Below are positions 40,143 through 58,219 of a stretch of DNA of 64,000 nt, one piece after another. Position numbers and translations under genes: made by a program. Position 1 is the stretch's first letter. The number at the start of each line of letters is the position of its first letter. The DNA is from Candidatus Nealsonbacteria bacterium DGGOD1a. Lineage in GTDB: Bacteria; Patescibacteriota; Minisyncoccia; Minisyncoccales; UBA5738. The notes below the pieces were generated by a model, which saw nothing but the letters and a program-made list of their open reading frames with translations, had not been told where the DNA came from and searched no databases. Where the stretch lies: positions 905,128-969,127 of the forward strand of contig CP092821.1 of NCBI GenBank assembly GCA_022530585.1. The letters run 5' to 3'.

Positions 40143-40166
40143 GGGCGAATTATTATTCGCCCCTAC
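40143..40166 (+). repeat. Family-4 GTAG-tailed REP-like hairpin
   Basis: GGGCGAATTATTATTCGCCCCTAC (stem GGGCGAA/TTCGCCC, then the CTAC tail). Confidence 0.85.
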
Positions 40167-47020: not shown

Positions 47021-47104
47021 GCCGAAGTGGTGAAACTGGCATACACGCAGCACTCAAAATGCTGTGAGGGCAACCTCGTGTGGGTTCAACTCCCACCTTC
47101 GGCA
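47021..47104 (+). tRNA. tRNA-Leu (anticodon CAA), class II, no encoded CCA
   Basis: Manual fold: acceptor GCCGAAG/CTTCGGC with discriminator A; D-stem GTG/CAC; anticodon stem CAGCA/TGCTG with loop CTCAAAA; 13-nt variable arm (GAGG-GCAA-CCTC); T-arm GTGGG-TTCAACT-CCCAC. Confidence 0.85.
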
Positions 47105-47553: not shown

Positions 47554-48294
47554 TTATTCGCCGATCGATTTGACTAAATACATCATCAATATTCCGGCGA
47601 TAAACACCGAAAAAGAAATCATTGATTTTTTAAAATTCATTTCTTTGCGAATTTCGGGCATCAAATCCGACGCGGCGATATAAACAAATCCGCCGGCGGC
47701 AAACGGCAAAAGATACGGCAAAGCGCTTTGCAAATGCGAAAAGAAAAAATAGCCCGCGATACCGCCGATCACCACGGTCATCGCCACCGCGTAATTGATC
47801 AAAAGCGCGGTTTTCTTTTTAAATCCCGAATAGACCAGCACGCCGAAATCGCCGATTTCTTGCGGAATTTCGTGAATCGCCACCGCCAGCGTCGTGGATA
47901 TGCCCAGCGCGGGATTCACCATAAATGTGCTGGCAATCGTCAGTCCGTCAATAAAATTATGCACCGCGTCGCCCGCGAGATTCATATATCCGAAAGAATG
48001 TATTTCGCAGTCGGCTTTGTGGCAATGCCGCCAATGAATAATCTTTTCCAGCAAAAAGAAAAAAACGAACGACGCCAGAAACACGCCGAACAACAATTCC
48101 GATTCCAGCTCTTCGGCCGCTTCGGGCAAAAGATGCAAAAACGCGCCGCCCATCAAAGCTCCCGCCGACAGCGACACCAAAAACATTAAGATTTTTTCCA
48201 GAATTTCTTTTTTAAACATCAAAAACAACACTGCCGCCCAAACGCACAGAGTAATCGCAAAACTCGCCAAAATAATCATTAGTAAAATTGCCAT
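47554..48294 (-). CDS. ZIP-family divalent metal (zinc) transporter
   Basis: 246 aa, ATG confirmed, about 8 TM. HNFIDGLTIA and HEIPQEIGDF motifs. Confidence 0.85.
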   Translation of the reverse strand: MAILLMIILASFAITLCVWAAVLFLMFKKEILEKILMFLVSLSAGALMGGAFLHLLPEAAEELESELLFGVFLASFVFFFLLEKIIHWRHCHKADCEIHSFGYMNLAGDAVHNFIDGLTIASTFMVNPALGISTTLAVAIHEIPQEIGDFGVLVYSGFKKKTALLINYAVAMTVVIGGIAGYFFFSHLQSALPYLLPFAAGGFVYIAASDLMPEIRKEMNFKKSMISFSVFIAGILMMYLVKSIGE

Positions 48295-48399
48295 TGATGT
48301 TTTTTTATTCCGATTCCAGAATACCGCGAAAAATCTTTTTTTTCAAACGGCAAGGTGCCGCAAGATTCCGCCTTGCGACACCGCAACCGGCCATTTTGA

Positions 48400-48651
48400 T
48401 CATTTTTCTTTTTTCAGCGCGGCGATTTCCTCTTTTATCGCTTTCAATTCTTCTTCCAGCATCACCGCTTCTTCCTCCAGCGCCGCCGCCTCATTCTTGG
48501 GAGAAATAAATCTCCGGCGGCCAAATCCCATTCCCATTCCGCGGCCCCAGCCGCAACCGCCTCCCCAGCCCATTCCGCCGCCGCAAGGACCCATTCCCCT
48601 GCCGGTGCGCGGGCCTTGGCCCATCGGACCGGTTTGATCAAATCTCGGCAT
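48400..48651 (-). CDS. DUF5320-family protein
   Basis: MPRFDQTGPMGQGPRTGRGMGPCGGG... Gly/Met-rich N-terminus plus a C-terminal coiled coil (LEEELKAIKEEIAALKK). Confidence 0.7.
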   Translation of the reverse strand: MPRFDQTGPMGQGPRTGRGMGPCGGGMGWGGGCGWGRGMGMGFGRRRFISPKNEAAALEEEAVMLEEELKAIKEEIAALKKEK

Positions 48652-48839
48652 AATTTTTATTTGAAATCCTTATTAAGAATTCCAAATCGATTAAAATTTT
48701 TATTCTTTTTATACCCCGTCAGCTTGCCGCGGGGAACAAAAAGAATGAGGATTCCAAAGGAAACATCCTTTGGTTGATGGCGGGGTTAATACCCCGACAT
48801 CAATGTATTTTTTATCCCGACCTTTTAAGACGCCTTAAA

Positions 48840-48859
48840 TTATGAATATATATTCATAA
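48840..48859. promoter_or_regulatory. 20-bp perfect AT-rich palindrome, candidate operator upstream of the DUF5320-ZIP-DUF134 cluster
   Basis: TTATGAATAT|ATATTCATAA, about 190 nt upstream of the DUF5320 start and 30 nt from the IS left end. Confidence 0.4.
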
Positions 48860-48889
48860 CAATGTTTTGTCAAGCCAAAAGGGCGATTA

Positions 48890-50357
48890 TGTCATTTAAA
48901 AGTAGTAATGTCATACTTGCGTCCAAGTAGAAATGTCATACCTGGTATGATTGGTGGATAAAACATAACCCACCAATATGGAAAAAGAATTATTCAAGAT
49001 GACGCAAAAAGAGCTGGACAGGTATGAAGTAATAAGAAAATTGATCGCCAAAGAAATCACTCCGGGCGATGCGGCCAAGCAGCTGGGGCGGTCGGTAAGG
49101 CAGGTAAAGCGATTGCGCAACAAAGTGCGGGAGAAAGGCGCCAATGGGATCATTCACGGCTTGCGAGGCAAGCAAAGCAACAATAAGACCGATCTTAAAA
49201 TCTGGGAAAAATCCGGACAAATAATTTCAGAAAAGTATCCTGATTTCGGCCCGACCTTGGCGCATGAAAAACTGGTTGAGGTTGAAGGAATAAAAATTGG
49301 CAAGCAGACCACGCGCAATTTAATGATCGCAAAAAAGATTTGGATGCCCAAACCAAGAAAACAAAACCAGGAATTCCGCTGCCAAAGAGAACGCAAAGAA
49401 TCGCCGGGCGAGCTGGAACAATTCGACGGCTGTTACCACTTCTGGTTTGAGAAACGCGGCGATGAATCTTGTTTGTTGGCCTCCGTCGACGATGCCACCG
49501 GCCGGATCACCCGGGCGGAATTCACGGATAGCGAAAGCGTCATCAATGTGTTTCAATTCTGGAAAGGCTACCTCCAAGAATCAGGCAAACCGATAGCCAT
49601 CTACCTGGATAAATTCAGTACATATAAGATCAATCACAAAAATGCAAAAGACAACAGCGAAATGATCACCCAGTTTCAGAGAGCCGCCCGGGAACTGGAT
49701 ATAACCCTGATCACCGCCAACAGCCCGCAAGCCAAAGGCCGAATCGAACGGCTCTTTGACACTTTGCAGGACCGGCTGGTCAAGGAATTGCGATTGCGCG
49801 GCATCAGCGATATCGCCGCGGCCAGCAAATTCTTAAAAGAAGAATTCATTCCGGATTTCAATCAAAGATTTTCGGTGATTCCCAAAAAGAAAAACGATCT
49901 GCACCGGCAGCTGCCCGATTTTCAAAGTTCAAATCTTGACGCGATATTTTCCGTCCAATCGCAAAGGCGGGTACAGAATGATTTCACGATAAGGTTCAAA
50001 AACCAATGGATACAGATCGCCAAAGAGCAGATCGCCACCGTGCGCCGCAAGGATGAAATTTTGATGGAAGAGCGGCTCGACGGATCGCTGGCGATCCGTC
50101 TGCGGGATAAATATTTAAACTTCAAAATCCTGCCGGCCAAGCCGTTGAAAGCCAAAGAATTGATTGCCGCCATACCGGCAAAAAGAATCATCTCCAAGCC
50201 ACCGGCGGATCATCCTTGGCGCAAACAAATCGCCGCTGAAATCGCAAAAATCAATTGTTAAAATATTTTTCCGGAAATAACAATACTAATTCTACAAAAG
50301 TCAAGTATGACATTTCTACTTAAATTCCGGGTATGACATTTCTACTTGTATTTGACA
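48890..50357 (+). mobile_element. Intact insertion sequence (1468 bp), IS1202/ISNCY-like, with a 16-bp target-site duplication
   Basis: Ends TGTCATTTAAAAGTAGTAATGTCATAC (left) and GTATGACATTTCTACTTGTATTTGACA (right) form imperfect IRs. Each end carries two AAGTAG(A/T)AATGTCATAC motifs. Flanked by the direct repeat GCCAAAAGGGCGATTA (48874-48889 and 50358-50373). Confidence 0.85.
48978..50261 (+). CDS. DDE transposase (rve/integrase core) with N-terminal HTH
   Basis: 427 aa, ATG confirmed. N-terminal TQKELDRYEVIRKLIAKEITPGDAAKQLGRSVRQVKRLRNKVREKGANGIIHGLRGKQSN. DDE candidates VDDATG, YLDKFSTY, QAKGRIERLF. Confidence 0.85.
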   Translation: MEKELFKMTQKELDRYEVIRKLIAKEITPGDAAKQLGRSVRQVKRLRNKVREKGANGIIHGLRGKQSNNKTDLKIWEKSGQIISEKYPDFGPTLAHEKLVEVEGIKIGKQTTRNLMIAKKIWMPKPRKQNQEFRCQRERKESPGELEQFDGCYHFWFEKRGDESCLLASVDDATGRITRAEFTDSESVINVFQFWKGYLQESGKPIAIYLDKFSTYKINHKNAKDNSEMITQFQRAARELDITLITANSPQAKGRIERLFDTLQDRLVKELRLRGISDIAAASKFLKEEFIPDFNQRFSVIPKKKNDLHRQLPDFQSSNLDAIFSVQSQRRVQNDFTIRFKNQWIQIAKEQIATVRRKDEILMEERLDGSLAIRLRDKYLNFKILPAKPLKAKELIAAIPAKRIISKPPADHPWRKQIAAEIAKINC

Positions 50358-50364
50358 GCCAAAA

Positions 50365-50390
50365 GGGCGATTACATGGAATCGCCCCTAC
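50365..50390 (+). repeat. Family-4 GTAG-tailed hairpin (target of the IS insertion)
   Basis: GGGCGATTACATGGAATCGCCCCTAC. Its left arm is part of the IS target-site duplication. Confidence 0.85.
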
Positions 50391-50399
50391 AAATCCAAT

Positions 50400-51536
50400 T
50401 CATATTCCCAAATTCGGTTCGGATGTCAAATCATCAGGGCTGGCAACCGCCTCCCCCCTTTTAAAAGCAAAGTAGCCCGCGACTCCGGCCATGGCCGCGT
50501 TATCCATTGATAAATCCGCGCCGGGCGCGAGAAATTTCATATTCAGTTCATCAGCCGCTTTTTGCATTGCCTCGCGCAAAGCCGCATTGGCGCTCACGCC
50601 GCCGCCGATAATGATTGATTTGGCGGCAAATTCTTTGGCCGCCCGCGCCGTTTTTGAAACCAGCACATCAACGATCGCCTGTTGAATCTCAAAACTCATC
50701 ATTCGCGGATATTCCGGCGATTTTCGCGTTTCTTCGTTCTGCTTTTGATGCGCGTACAGCACCGCGGTTTTCAATCCCGAAAAACTGAAATTGTAATTTT
50801 TTTGGGCAATCATCGGCCGCGGCAATTTGACTTTGGTTTCCGAAGGAGCATCTAAAAGGGTCGGACCCTTTTTATTCAAAAAGGGTCCGACCCTTTTAGA
50901 ATATTTTTGGGCATATTTTGCAATCTCCGGGCCGCCGGGATAGCCCAAGCCCAAAATGCGCGCGGCTTTGTCAAAACACTCGCCCGCCGCGTCATCTTGG
51001 GTTTGTCCCAGCAATTTGTAATCGCCGATGCCGCTAGCCAAGAACAACAGCGTGTGTCCGCCCGAAACCACCAAACAAACCGCCGGCAAATAGTTTTTGG
51101 CAAATTTTTCTTCGCCGATTTTCAAAGTTATCAAATTCGCCAAAAAATGCGCCTCCAAATGATTGGCTCCCGCCAACGGCAAGTTGTATTTCTTCGCCAA
51201 ATCTTGCGCGAAATTTATTCCCGTCCATAGGCACGGATCCAAGCCCGGCCCTTGCGTTACGACGATAAATTTTAATTTTGATAAATCAAATTTTTTTGTC
51301 GCGTCTTCAAAAACGAAAGGCAGATTTTTCTGATGCTCGCGTTTTGCCAAAAACGGATACACTCCGCCGTATCCGGCGTGCAATTCGGTTTGCGAAGAAA
51401 CAACATTGGACAGCGCCTCAATCTTCTCCAATTTCCCCTTATCCTCCTTTGCCCGCAAAACGCTGATTGAAGTGTCGTCGCAAGAAGTCTCAATCGCCAA
51501 AAAATACAGTTCTCCGCCTTTTTTTGCAAATTGCAT
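50400..51536 (-). CDS. tsaD: tRNA N6-adenosine threonylcarbamoyltransferase TsaD, carrying a ~17-aa palindrome-encoded insertion
   Basis: ATG confirmed. IETSCDDTSISV, ANHLEAH, GLGYPGGPEI, NFSFSGLKT, IIGGGVSAN. See repeat 50851-50900. Confidence 0.9.
   Translation of the reverse strand: MQFAKKGGELYFLAIETSCDDTSISVLRAKEDKGKLEKIEALSNVVSSQTELHAGYGGVYPFLAKREHQKNLPFVFEDATKKFDLSKLKFIVVTQGPGLDPCLWTGINFAQDLAKKYNLPLAGANHLEAHFLANLITLKIGEEKFAKNYLPAVCLVVSGGHTLLFLASGIGDYKLLGQTQDDAAGECFDKAARILGLGYPGGPEIAKYAQKYSKRVGPFLNKKGPTLLDAPSETKVKLPRPMIAQKNYNFSFSGLKTAVLYAHQKQNEETRKSPEYPRMMSFEIQQAIVDVLVSKTARAAKEFAAKSIIIGGGVSANAALREAMQKAADELNMKFLAPGADLSMDNAAMAGVAGYFAFKRGEAVASPDDLTSEPNLGI
50851..50900. repeat. Family-3 palindrome (23-bp perfect arms, 4-nt centre) inside tsaD, in frame
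   Basis: TCTAAAAGGGTCGGACCCTTTTT-ATTC-AAAAAGGGTCCGACCCTTTTAGA. It encodes SKRVGPFLNKKGPTLL. Confidence 0.9.
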
Positions 51537-56875: not shown

Positions 56876-56901
56876 GTAGGGGCGAAACCATGTTTTCGCC
56901 C
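56876..56901 (-). repeat. Family-4 GTAG-tailed hairpin
   Basis: GTAGGGGCGAAACCATGTTTTCGCCC, identical to the copy at 58075-58100. Confidence 0.85.
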
Positions 56902-58074: not shown

Positions 58075-58219
58075 GTAGGGGCGAAACCATGTTTTCGCCC
58101 GAATTTTTAATCCCGAATCCCAAATTTCGGGAAAAACCAAAACGGGCGATTACACGGAATCGCCCCTACGGATACGAATACCAAATTCAAAATACGGGCG
58201 AATAATCATTCGCCCCTAC
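58075..58219. repeat. Cluster of three family-4 GTAG-tailed hairpins
   Basis: 58075-58100 GTAGGGGCGAAACCATGTTTTCGCCC; 58144-58169 GGGCGATTACACGGAATCGCCCCTAC; 58196-58219 GGGCGAATAATCATTCGCCCCTAC. The last one provides the iorA stop codon (CTA at 58216-58218). Confidence 0.85.

Follow-up and report, generated by a model that had tools for sequence, protein, structure and literature searches.

Genes and features at the insertion locus

The window (the whole 64-kb stretch of the Candidatus Nealsonbacteria DGGOD1a genome that was analyzed, to which all coordinates refer) holds a complete insertion sequence (IS) of the IS1202 family, long-duplication type, at 48890-50357 on the plus strand, bounded by inverted repeats and a target-site duplication and present in identical form at two more sites in the genome. 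To its left, on the minus strand, lies a host promoter whose −35 hexamer TTGACA (48868-48873) abuts the duplication directly and is followed, after a 17-nt spacer, by the −10 hexamer TATATT (48845-48850), in a register at which TATAAT peaks family-wide. An independent promoter scan of 48300-50700 returned TTGACA-17-TATATT as its best match (11/12 positions, 48873 to 48845, minus strand), touching the duplication. This promoter is separated from the first gene of a leftward operon by a structured 187-nt leader (48652-48838, minus strand; MFE −66.6 kcal/mol, z = −6.97), and an Rfam search of this promoter-proximal stretch gave no match. The operon begins with a called gene for an 83-aa glycine-rich protein (48400-48651, minus strand) and continues with a ZIP transporter gene (47554-48294).

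From the right, tsaD (50400-51536, minus strand; Pfam TsaD) converges on the IS. Next to it stands a REP-like hairpin, GGGCGATT-ACATGG-AATCGCCC plus CTAC (50365-50390, plus strand), with the distal staggered cut in its loop. Viewed on the minus strand, the same positions form a hairpin and then TTTT, starting 10 nt past the tsaD stop codon (14 nt to the stem), and they are probably the tsaD terminator. The window has six hairpins of the form GGGCGA...TCGCCC (0.12 expected), all with GTAG or CTAC on one side, and the target hairpin has the makeup of a REP element, in which GTAG stands beside a short palindrome rich in G+C and the unit recurs in intergenic DNA; these GTAG-type hairpins may simply be a family of terminators. 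The geometry described in the first-pass annotation, with one cut in the loop and the left arm duplicated, was correct, and the hairpin at 50365-50390 is real; the duplication leaves a complete copy of it on the tsaD side.

Structure and family placement of the element

The IS is 1,468 bp long, and its 27-nt terminal inverted repeats begin with TGTCA and are 85% complementary (48890-48916 and 50331-50357; 23 of 28 positions match). The left repeat (IRL, TGTCATTTAAAAGTAGTAATGTCATAC, 48890-48916, plus strand) has a TGT tip and a TGTCA core at position 20 that are conserved across relatives, while the right repeat (IRR, TGTCAAATACAAGTAGAAATGTCATAC in the minus-strand reading, 50331-50357) has TTGACA as its outward-facing tip. 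The 17-mer AAGTAGWAATGTCATAC is found exactly four times in the window (0.01 expected), two copies per IS end, at 48900-48916 and 48925-48941 on the plus strand and at 50305-50321 and 50331-50347 on the minus strand. Relatives with as little as 48% protein identity still have the conserved motif, and its copies are the presumed binding sites of the transposase. The extent of the element, its TGTCA ends and the two motif copies at each end were all as first annotated. A further idea, that the IRR tip TTGACA, a 15- to 16-bp spacer and the IRL tip would make up a promoter in a circular intermediate, was dropped; IRL tips (e.g., TGTCCC) hold no plausible −10.

The transposase gene (48978-50261, plus strand) is an intact open reading frame of 427 aa with an N-terminal HTH (Pfam HTH_23, residues 10-57) and the catalytic residues D150, D171-D172, D211 and E257, together with Q264, which stands at E+7; all of these are invariant in the transposase alignment. 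The protein scores 387 bits against NCBIfam NF033594 “ISNCY family transposase” (ISNCY_2; cutoff 250) and is already labeled “ISNCY family transposase” by NCBI, which bears out its initial description as an intact 427-aa HTH plus DDE transposase. An extra DD pair and Q at E+7 are the signature of the IS1202 family (bioRxiv 10.1101/2022.12.17.520857), and both are present here in a single HTH-DDE transposase, along with the size of the family (∼1.3 to 1.7 kb) and its imperfect inverted repeats of ∼23 to 29 bp starting with TGT. The likeness extends to the ISTde1 subgroup (ISTde1, ISCARN53/62/63, ISHahy13, ISVisp7 and others), which shares with the element one HTH-DDE transposase with the extra DD pair and Q at E+7, inverted repeats of ∼23 to 29 bp starting with TGT, a conserved block near position 20, a length of 1.3 to 1.7 kb and duplications of 15 to 17 bp (PMC10132070 Table 7; bioRxiv 10.1101/2022.12.17.520857). 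The duplications of the IS at its three copies (16, 15 and 15 bp) fall within the published 15 to 17 bp of the ISTde1 subgroup (bioRxiv 10.1101/2022.12.17.520857), and nine long-duplication members are tabulated with 16 to 17 bp (PMC10132070); the initial statement that long duplications are typical of part of the IS1202/ISNCY group agrees with these values.

The element differs from the ISTde1 subgroup in other respects. An insertion of 5 to 10 aa between the second D and E is recorded for 43 members of the subgroup (bioRxiv 10.1101/2022.12.17.520857) and is absent from the DGGOD1a transposase, which in this interval differs by only 1 aa in length from two short-duplication relatives. On alignment, this seems to weaken membership in the subgroup without precluding it, because the insertion is not universal there. 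The nearest relatives in the plasmid collection (tblastn) share only 37 to 42% identity and, unlike the ISTde1 subgroup, are short-duplication elements: the two with readable ends and a duplication, in Aliivibrio and Vibrio plasmids, have duplications of ∼5 to 6 bp, and the plasmid relatives in Enterobacter, Acidithiobacillus, Rhizobium and Paracoccus either showed no duplication or had ends that could not be convincingly delimited. The hosts also differ, being CPR/Patescibacteria, which are absent from the published host list. By its sequence the element appears to fit the IS1202 family as a long-duplication (ISTde1-like) type; taken alone, it is unremarkable, a new addition to an IS family already catalogued.

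Copies, duplications, and recency of insertion

The two copies of the target-site duplication GCCAAAAGGGCGATTA (48874-48889 and 50358-50373) are each bounded by an IS terminus and form a perfect direct repeat of 16 bp, or of 17 nt when the A at 48873/50357 is included; the symmetry of the inverted repeats (TGTCA...TGACA) appears to favor 16 bp. The DGGOD1a genome holds at least three copies of the IS at three sites with 0 mismatches over 1,468 bp, a number to be read as a lower bound since the genome scan by protein used one genome per species and returned four loci, DGGOD1a not among them. All three copies have perfect duplications (15, 15 and 16 bp) that differ in sequence between sites, so the duplication at the window locus, confirmed here as first annotated, is not a chance repeat: the other copies carry different duplications of like length (15 and 15 bp, near the 16 bp of the window). 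The three mismatch-free copies and their perfect duplications likewise uphold the view of a recent, possibly active insertion. Among 12 reconstructed sites of the IS and its relatives, the duplication is 15 bp in ten and 16 bp in two.

The chance that the 16-mer belongs to an older local duplication that had nothing to do with insertion is virtually negligible. It does hold one arm of a repeated hairpin family, with similar sequences elsewhere, but the boundaries of the repeat coincide exactly with the IS termini, the other two IS copies have unrelated 15-bp duplications, and the paralogous hairpin at 58144 has the corresponding sequence once. This uninterrupted, near-identical hairpin copy (58144-58169) shows what the unoccupied state looks like; the empty-site junction TCAAGCCAAAAGGGCGATTACATGGAATCG had 0 matches in JGI metagenome contigs, and the pre-insertion state given here for the window locus is a reconstruction.

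Probable insertion at a fixed register upstream of promoters

Going outward from one end of the IS, the order of features at its insertion sites is the duplication, a TTGACA-like hexamer, 17 nt and a TATAAT-like hexamer. A sigma-70-type promoter pointing away from the IS was found at all three DGGOD1a sites and at 12/12 reconstructed sites, and at each of these 12 genuine sites a 15- or 16-bp duplication abuts the −35-like hexamer. The other two DGGOD1a sites, A and B, have TTGACA-N18-TATCTT and TTGTTT-N17-TATATT at the register of the window site. In 84 unique flanks of relatives, collected by a scan for IS ends that was blind to flanking sequence, perfect TTGACA had 13 occurrences at offset 15 and 4 at offset 16, with 0 to 2 at any other offset. 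TATAAT peaked in these flanks at offset 38 (= 15 + 6 + 17), and the extended −10 position was enriched in G. Of the 84 flanks, 36 reached a combined hexamer score of ≥8, compared to 1.4% of random positions (P ∼ 1 × 10−43). With more loci, 58/119 independent flanks, about one per element, scored as promoters, under a score of which the version giving the 1.4% random-position rate is slightly narrower. Of 42 promoter flanks, none of which were near-duplicates, 35 had the first base of the −35 hexamer at offset 15 and 7 at offset 16, with neighboring offsets at background. Loci fetched by protein identity rather than by DNA motif replicated this pattern.

The −35 hexamer is weak at several sites (TTGTTT, TTTCTA, TGGATA, TAGAAA, GTGGCA), yet these keep the exact register and a good −10, and a recognizable −10 is also present at 38/38 sites with a strong −35. 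In every case checked, the called gene on the promoter side is transcribed away from the IS; a corresponding test with mechanically defined open reading frames (35/37 versus 39/50 outward) was weakly informative. From this evidence, which is wholly comparative, the IS and its CPR relatives appear to insert at a fixed 15 to 16 bases upstream of gene promoters. The rule was not found in any paper of a literature covered in part; what would be new here is insertion at single-nucleotide register directly upstream of sigma-70-type −35 boxes, at dozens of independent CPR sites.

The end of the IS that adjoins the promoter seems to be fixed within a lineage, namely, IRL for the DGGOD1a IS and its 77% relative and IRR for several others. 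For the DGGOD1a IS and its closest relative, reading of the flanks placed the promoter on the IRL side in 8/8 distinct left flanks (with a strict score cutoff, IRL 4/11 versus IRR 0/9 flanks). In one other type of relative, promoter scores were reached by 0/9 IRL flanks and 14/25 IRR flanks. End architecture was rejected as the cause of this polarity, given that TGTC cores stand at positions 1, 20 and 44 to 46 in both IRL- and IRR-type lineages.

Target choice and recognition

At the window locus, the IS interrupts the loop of a REP-like hairpin, and the first-pass annotation took this as a hint of hairpin or REP targeting. Such behavior would resemble that of IS1397/ISKpn1 (IS3 family) and IS110/IS1111 elements, REP-targeting elements that are known to insert in REP loops at essentially every copy. 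If the transposase recognized stem-loops or REP elements and cut in the loop, it would account for the promoter-distal cut, which at each of the three DGGOD1a sites touches or lies within an inverted repeat (stems of 8 bp in the REP, 17 bp and 5 bp), and the REP-like family is a real one in the window. The comparison with other copies that had been proposed as a check nevertheless goes against this reading. The other two DGGOD1a copies lie outside GTAG-type REP hairpins, so that a REP hairpin marks 1/3 DGGOD1a copies and 1/12 reconstructed sites overall. There is no stem of ≥5 bp at the cut in 5/12 sites (5/9 in relatives), the stems at three further sites in relatives are weak (6 to 7 bp, A/T-only in two cases), that at one more site is 7 bp long and contains G+C, and the position of the cut within the hairpin varies between loop and left arm. 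The promoter register, by comparison, accounts for every site, the three DGGOD1a sites included. Hairpin targeting is largely refuted by the 12-site comparison, and we consider it quite improbable. A very slim chance attaches to the alternative that insertion is random and that copies survive only at harmless intergenic spots just upstream of promoters. CPR genomes are streamlined and gene dense, which implies strong purifying selection against insertions inside genes, and a copy upstream of a promoter should be tolerated. However, a register fixed to the nucleotide (offset 15 in 35 and offset 16 in 7 of 42 flanks) is beyond what selection can give, polarity is fixed within lineages, and equally harmless positions farther upstream or downstream of terminators go unused; the offset profile refutes selection as the sole explanation.

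We therefore conclude that the element is very probably an intact, recently active IS of the IS1202-family long-duplication type that cuts at the upstream −35 edge of an outward sigma-70-type promoter and is not hairpin targeted. In the mechanism we propose, the HTH-DDE transposase would bind the repeated 17-mers at both ends, and the element would be joined to its target through cuts staggered by 15 to 16 bp, as the duplications show. Of the two cuts, one would coincide exactly with the upstream boundary of the −35 hexamer in an outward-facing promoter, and the other would lie 15 to 16 bp farther upstream, in whatever sequence is found there. At the window locus, the REP hairpin that resembles a tsaD terminator is located 16 bp upstream of the −35 box, and the second cut would for this reason have entered its loop. 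Owing to the length of the duplication, neither neighbor would be damaged: the 16 bp that natively precede the promoter would stay in place, and tsaD would keep a complete hairpin.

How the promoter is recognized can be stated with less confidence. We slightly favor, at a little below even chances, a model in which a transposase subunit reads the −35 box directly, since the 5-mer TGACA at the core of the −35 recurs, in the same orientation, as the core of the IS tip and of each of the two 17-mers inside the adjacent end. Nearly as likely, though still a tentative proposal, is recruitment of the transposase by RNA polymerase holoenzyme bound at the promoter, through sigma region 4 or the C-terminal domains of alpha, with integration at the upstream edge of the complex. 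This rival concerns the recognition step only and accepts the promoter-register rule. The joint enrichment of −35, −10, 17-nt spacer and extended −10 G suggests that whole promoters rather than lone hexamers are the targets, which speaks for recruitment, as do the sites that hold exact register with a weak −35 and a good −10, and the 38 strong −35 flanks, among which no insertion lies beside a TTGACA without a −10; the last two observations count against direct reading. The fixed, lineage-specific polarity, with no correlate in end architecture, is a further difficulty for the proposed mechanism. In a sister subgroup, moreover, the distance between the element and a protein-binding site is exactly one duplication length, and the orientation is fixed (PMC10132070; bioRxiv 10.1101/2022.12.17.520857). 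On the other hand, selection against insertions inside genes of compact genomes could alone remove TTGACA sites outside promoters, and recruitment leaves unexplained the TGACA core common to the −35 box and the presumed binding sites of the transposase. The full proposal that a CPR/Patescibacteria clade of the IS1202 family lands one duplication length (15 to 16 bp) upstream of the −35 through contact with RNA polymerase or sigma, with lineage-fixed polarity, is a speculative one that we hold to be rather unlikely in this complete form.

Implications and comparison with known systems

Should the promoter-register rule hold, the long duplications would regenerate both the upstream DNA of the promoter and whatever lies 15 bp farther up, making insertion harmless in gene-dense genomes. 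It would also supply base-accurate promoter annotations for uncultured CPR bacteria at no cost, and a compact single-protein system for promoter-proximal DNA integration. The yeast retrotransposons Ty3, Ty1 and Tf1 contact transcription factors and are thereby directed to fixed positions upstream of transcription units. The outcome is alike, integration just upstream of promoters or start sites with coding sequence spared, whereas the enzymes and hosts are unrelated and the host-protein landmark is, in our case, a proposal; contact with RNA polymerase or sigma, if true, would be a bacterial counterpart of such targeting.

Within the IS1202 family, the two papers that defined it looked for targets of the long-duplication members and report no specificity (PMC10132070 sections 19-20; bioRxiv 10.1101/2022.12.17.520857); the putative target here, by comparison with the ISTde1 subgroup, is a fixed register upstream of −35 boxes. 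Closest in behavior is the ISAba32/ISAjo2 subgroup, of the same family, which inserts at dif/pdif Xer sites one duplication length from its landmark and in one orientation. Its IRL adjoins the XerC arm, and recognition via the bound protein has been proposed by the authors (PMC10132070; bioRxiv 10.1101/2022.12.17.520857). In that subgroup the duplication is 5 to 6 bp and the landmark an Xer site, whereas here they are 15 to 16 bp and a promoter, and polarity differs between lineages; the flanks of our element carry promoter hexamers in place of the dif-like sites, at which members of that subgroup insert 5 bp from the XerC arm. If the rule holds, the fixed distance from a landmark seen in the dif-targeting subgroup gains a second landmark, and a family-wide habit of integrating beside proteins already bound to DNA, XerC on dif sites and sigma/RNA polymerase on promoters, would, if true, join the two.

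A further lead is ISCARN112, a metagenomic ISfinder entry of 1,468 bp with inverted repeats matching at 23/29, a 428-aa transposase and no duplication detected (PMC10132070 Table 7). It equals our element in length and resembles it in transposase size (427 versus 428 aa) and inverted-repeat match (23/28 here), and the 39.5% identity between the ISCARN112 and ISAjo2 transposases (PMC10132070 Table 7) is similar to that between the DGGOD1a protein and the short-duplication plasmid relatives (37 to 42%). The comparison is by tabulated description, and if the two are related, the “no duplication” record of ISCARN112 may be an assembly artifact. Many single metagenome contigs with relatives of our element likewise have no duplication at the IS, which we attribute to chimeric assembly through a multicopy IS because matching flanks were found on other contigs; IS-IS recombination would look alike. 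Records of metagenomic IS without a duplication can accordingly be artifacts of assembly.

The window element and its family

The 1,468-bp insertion sequence at 48890-50357 ends in imperfect terminal inverted repeats of 27 nt (read inward, TGTCATTTAAAAGTAGTAATGTCATAC left and TGTCAAATACAAGTAGAAATGTCATAC right), and each end carries two inward-pointing copies of the 17-mer AAGTAGWAATGTCATAC (four copies vs 0.01 expected in the 64-kb window). Its sole long ORF (48978-50261, plus strand) encodes a transposase of 427 aa with an N-terminal HTH, scoring 387 bits against the NCBIfam profile NF033594 (“ISNCY family transposase”; cutoff 250). The element is bounded by the duplication GCCAAAAGGGCGATTA (48874-48889 and 50358-50373), a direct repeat that is perfect across 17 nt when the A common to flank and IS terminus is included. 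The first-pass annotation had described the element, its inverted repeats, the 17-mers, the transposase and the duplication, with coordinates that match the sequence, and its reading of the protein as an HTH plus DDE transposase agrees with the HTH, the profile score and the invariance of D150, D211 and E257.

Members of the IS1202 family are ~1.3-1.7 kb long with TGT-initiated repeats of ~23-29 bp; their HTH-DDE transposases have a further DD pair and, seven residues past the catalytic E, a Q, and their three groups differ in duplication length (5-6 bp in ISAba32/ISAjo2, 15-17 bp in ISTde1, 27-28 bp in IS1202) (PMC10132070; bioRxiv 10.1101/2022.12.17.520857). Because D150, D171-D172, D211, E257 and Q264 were all invariant in the transposase alignment, we assign the window IS to this family on its protein signature, in line with the first-pass link of such long duplications to part of the IS1202/ISNCY group. 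The ISTde1 group, for which 15-17 bp is published, shares its duplication length, but the window transposase lacks the insertion of 5-10 aa that many ISTde1-group proteins have between the second D and E, and the nearest relatives in the plasmid collection (37-42% identity) were short-duplication elements. ISCARN112 (1,468 bp, 428 aa, duplication not detected; PMC10132070) is strikingly close in size, a lead from its listed size. The window IS joins this established family as a new member with a variant target behavior.

Copies in DGGOD1a

DGGOD1a, a CPR epibiont with a 1.16-Mb genome, comes from a culture that degrades benzene under methanogenic conditions; its genome paper counted 39 transposases without analyzing the window IS (bioRxiv 10.1101/2022.04.20.488981). 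Contig look-ups placed the element at three distinct positions in this genome, in copies identical across 1,468 bp, each with its own duplication: GGTTTGGCGCACGAA at site A (15 bp), TTATAACCGTGAAAA at site B (15 bp) and the 16-mer at site C, in the window. Identical copies at three sites with different duplications indicate that the 16-mer is a genuine target-site duplication, not an older local repeat, and that the element moved recently, as had been proposed. An earlier assembly from this culture (JGI 2020627003, BDM_C529; L006) has the IS between the left flank of site B and the right flank of site A, reflecting either an assembly chimera or recombination/inversion between two IS copies.

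Probable insertion in register with promoters

All three DGGOD1a left flanks end in ...CAA directly before the duplication (TGTCAA, ACAA and TGTCAA). Read outward from the left inverted repeat (IRL), the duplication is followed by TTGACA, ~17 nt and a TATATT-like hexamer, a motif that we read as a sigma-70-type promoter directed away from the IS. In the window, TTGACA-17-TATATT (11/12; minus strand, 48873->48845) was the top match of an independent consensus scan of 48300-50700.

To survey relatives, metagenome contigs were scanned for the 17-mer, so that flanking sequence played no part in the search, and ends matching TGT-N14-AATGTCA that adjoined transposase relatives (48-79% identity) were kept. 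Among 84 unique flanks, perfect TTGACA occurred 13 times at offset 15 (distance outward from the IS end), 4 times at offset 16 and 0-2 times at any other; TATAAT peaked at offset 38 (15+6+17), and the base immediately before it, where the G of an extended -10 would lie, was enriched for G. In all, 36/84 flanks scored >=8 on the two hexamers combined; random positions of the same loci did so in 1.4% of cases (p ~1e-43) and other offsets within these flanks in 2.6%. The 42 promoter flanks showed no mutual relatedness beyond the motifs, and after further loci were added the tally was 58/119 flanks, roughly one per element. Loci fetched through exact protein identity instead of the DNA motif repeated the pattern (P0006, 77% identity; P0092 and P0082, 57-58%; P0019, 64%).

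On many single metagenome contigs of relatives the duplication was absent; cross-contig matching of left and right flanks recovered it (L143/L147, L145/L144, L150/L143 and three further pairs). P0092/P0082-type elements (L143-L152, L156-L165) had matching 15-bp flanks on separate contigs and none duplicated within one contig. Because matching flanks sit on different contigs, contigs through a multicopy IS are often chimeric, which may account for metagenomic IS, ISCARN112 among them, being listed as “no duplication detected”. Reconstruction yielded twelve genuine sites, with duplications of 15 bp in ten and 16 bp in two, and in 12/12 a -35-like hexamer directly followed the duplication on one side. 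An initial T in the hexamer and a T...A tip on the IS leave one base ambiguous at every site, so 15-16 bp here agrees with the published 15-17 bp.

The promoter was always directed away from the IS, and the end facing it was constant within a lineage and differed between lineages. It lay on the IRL side in the window IS and its 77% relative (8/8 distinct sites), as in L109, L111 and L129, and on the right (IRR) side in the TGTCCC/TGTAAAGG type (IRL 0/9, IRR 14/25, strict threshold), the P0092, P0082 and P0019 types and L012. End architecture offered no correlate, TGTC cores lying at 1, 20 and 44-46 in both classes. We consider it likely that these IS1202-family elements integrate promoter-proximally in exact register. 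Searches on ISTde1, the IS1202 family with promoters and promoter-targeting IS returned nothing relevant; targeting in the family was reported for the 5-bp subgroup only (Siguier preprint, bioRxiv 10.1101/2022.12.17.520857), and within the literature searched the rule is undescribed.

Two loci showed other arrangements. In L026 (2565-2582), exactly 16 nt separate one element's IRR from the IRL that follows, which belongs to another, related IS: an adjacent insertion whose distance from the TTGACA tip of the other element equals one duplication length. L110, a 1,571-bp relative, lacks a duplication and is flanked on both sides by promoter-like sequence in the correct register, as recombination between IRL-side and IRR-side insertions would give.

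The hairpin at the window site

The right duplication copy runs into the hairpin GGGCGATT-ACATGG-AATCGCCC-CTAC (50365-50390), with one of the cuts inside its loop and its left arm duplicated, as first described. The proposal that REPs or hairpins are the target did not hold: all three DGGOD1a sites have an inverted repeat at the promoter-distal cut (stems of 5, 17 and 8 bp), but five of nine relatives' sites have none, three have weak 6-7-bp stems (two A/T-only) and one a 7-bp G+C-containing stem, and the window site is the sole GTAG-type REP among 12. The hairpin is collateral, lying 16 bp upstream of a -35 box. On the minus strand, it starts 14 nt past the tsaD stop codon and TTTT comes after it, so the hairpin is probably the tsaD terminator. 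GGGCGA...TCGCCC palindromes occur six times in the window vs 0.12 expected (40143-40162, 50365-50386, 56880-56901, 58079-58100, 58144-58165 and 58196-58215), each with GTAG/CTAC on one side and a short T run following in one orientation; an uninterrupted near-identical copy lies at 58144-58169. Instead of classical REPs, the six may form a family of terminators.

Mechanism

As read from the insertion sites, cuts are staggered by 15-16 bp, one falling immediately upstream of the -35 hexamer, with promoter orientation fixed. Both neighbors stay intact, since the duplication restores the DNA upstream of the promoter and, in the window, the complete tsaD hairpin. The transposase would bind the 17-mers, and transposition is probably copy-out-paste-in, as reported ISKpn21 circles suggest for the family (bioRxiv 10.1101/2022.12.17.520857).

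Pure selection without target choice cannot explain a register held to the single nucleotide in the TTGACA offset profile. Between two forms of target choice the evidence is about evenly balanced. The transposase may read the -35 box directly: the box and the IS ends share a TGACA core, and TGTCA recurs at each end, in the tip and in both internal 17-mers, oriented like the adjacent -35 box, which sits 21-22 bp outside the tip. Equally, promoter-bound RNA polymerase or sigma factor may recruit the transposase, since targets are complete promoters rather than lone hexamers and the register is kept at sites with a weak -35 but good -10. A sister subgroup also favors recruitment: its landmark is the XerC-binding arm of dif sites, whereas that of the window clade is a promoter, both one duplication length away.

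Neighborhood of the insertions

Downstream of the targeted promoter lies a structured 187-nt leader (48652-48838, minus strand), then a leftward operon (83-aa gene, ZIP transporter, DUF134). The leader (MFE -66.6 kcal/mol, z = -6.97 vs shuffles; four hairpins) had no match in an Rfam search, holds the direct repeat TGACGGGGTATAAA / TGTCGGGGTATTAA, and could act as a cis-regulatory RNA not yet described or as a binding region for a regulator. Across the IRL/duplication junction, upstream of the native promoter, is a promoter-like ATGACA-17-CATAAT (10/12, with TG; 48886-48914, minus strand); the IS may contribute an outward hybrid promoter here. Some 1.8 kb to the left of the IS is a tRNA gene (47021-47104, plus strand; 55.9 bits against Rfam RF00005). 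At site B (L002, ~2862-2874), the -10 hexamer ends ~7 nt ahead of the annotated start codon of a Fic-domain gene, a spacing that points to a transcript without a leader or to a wrongly called start.
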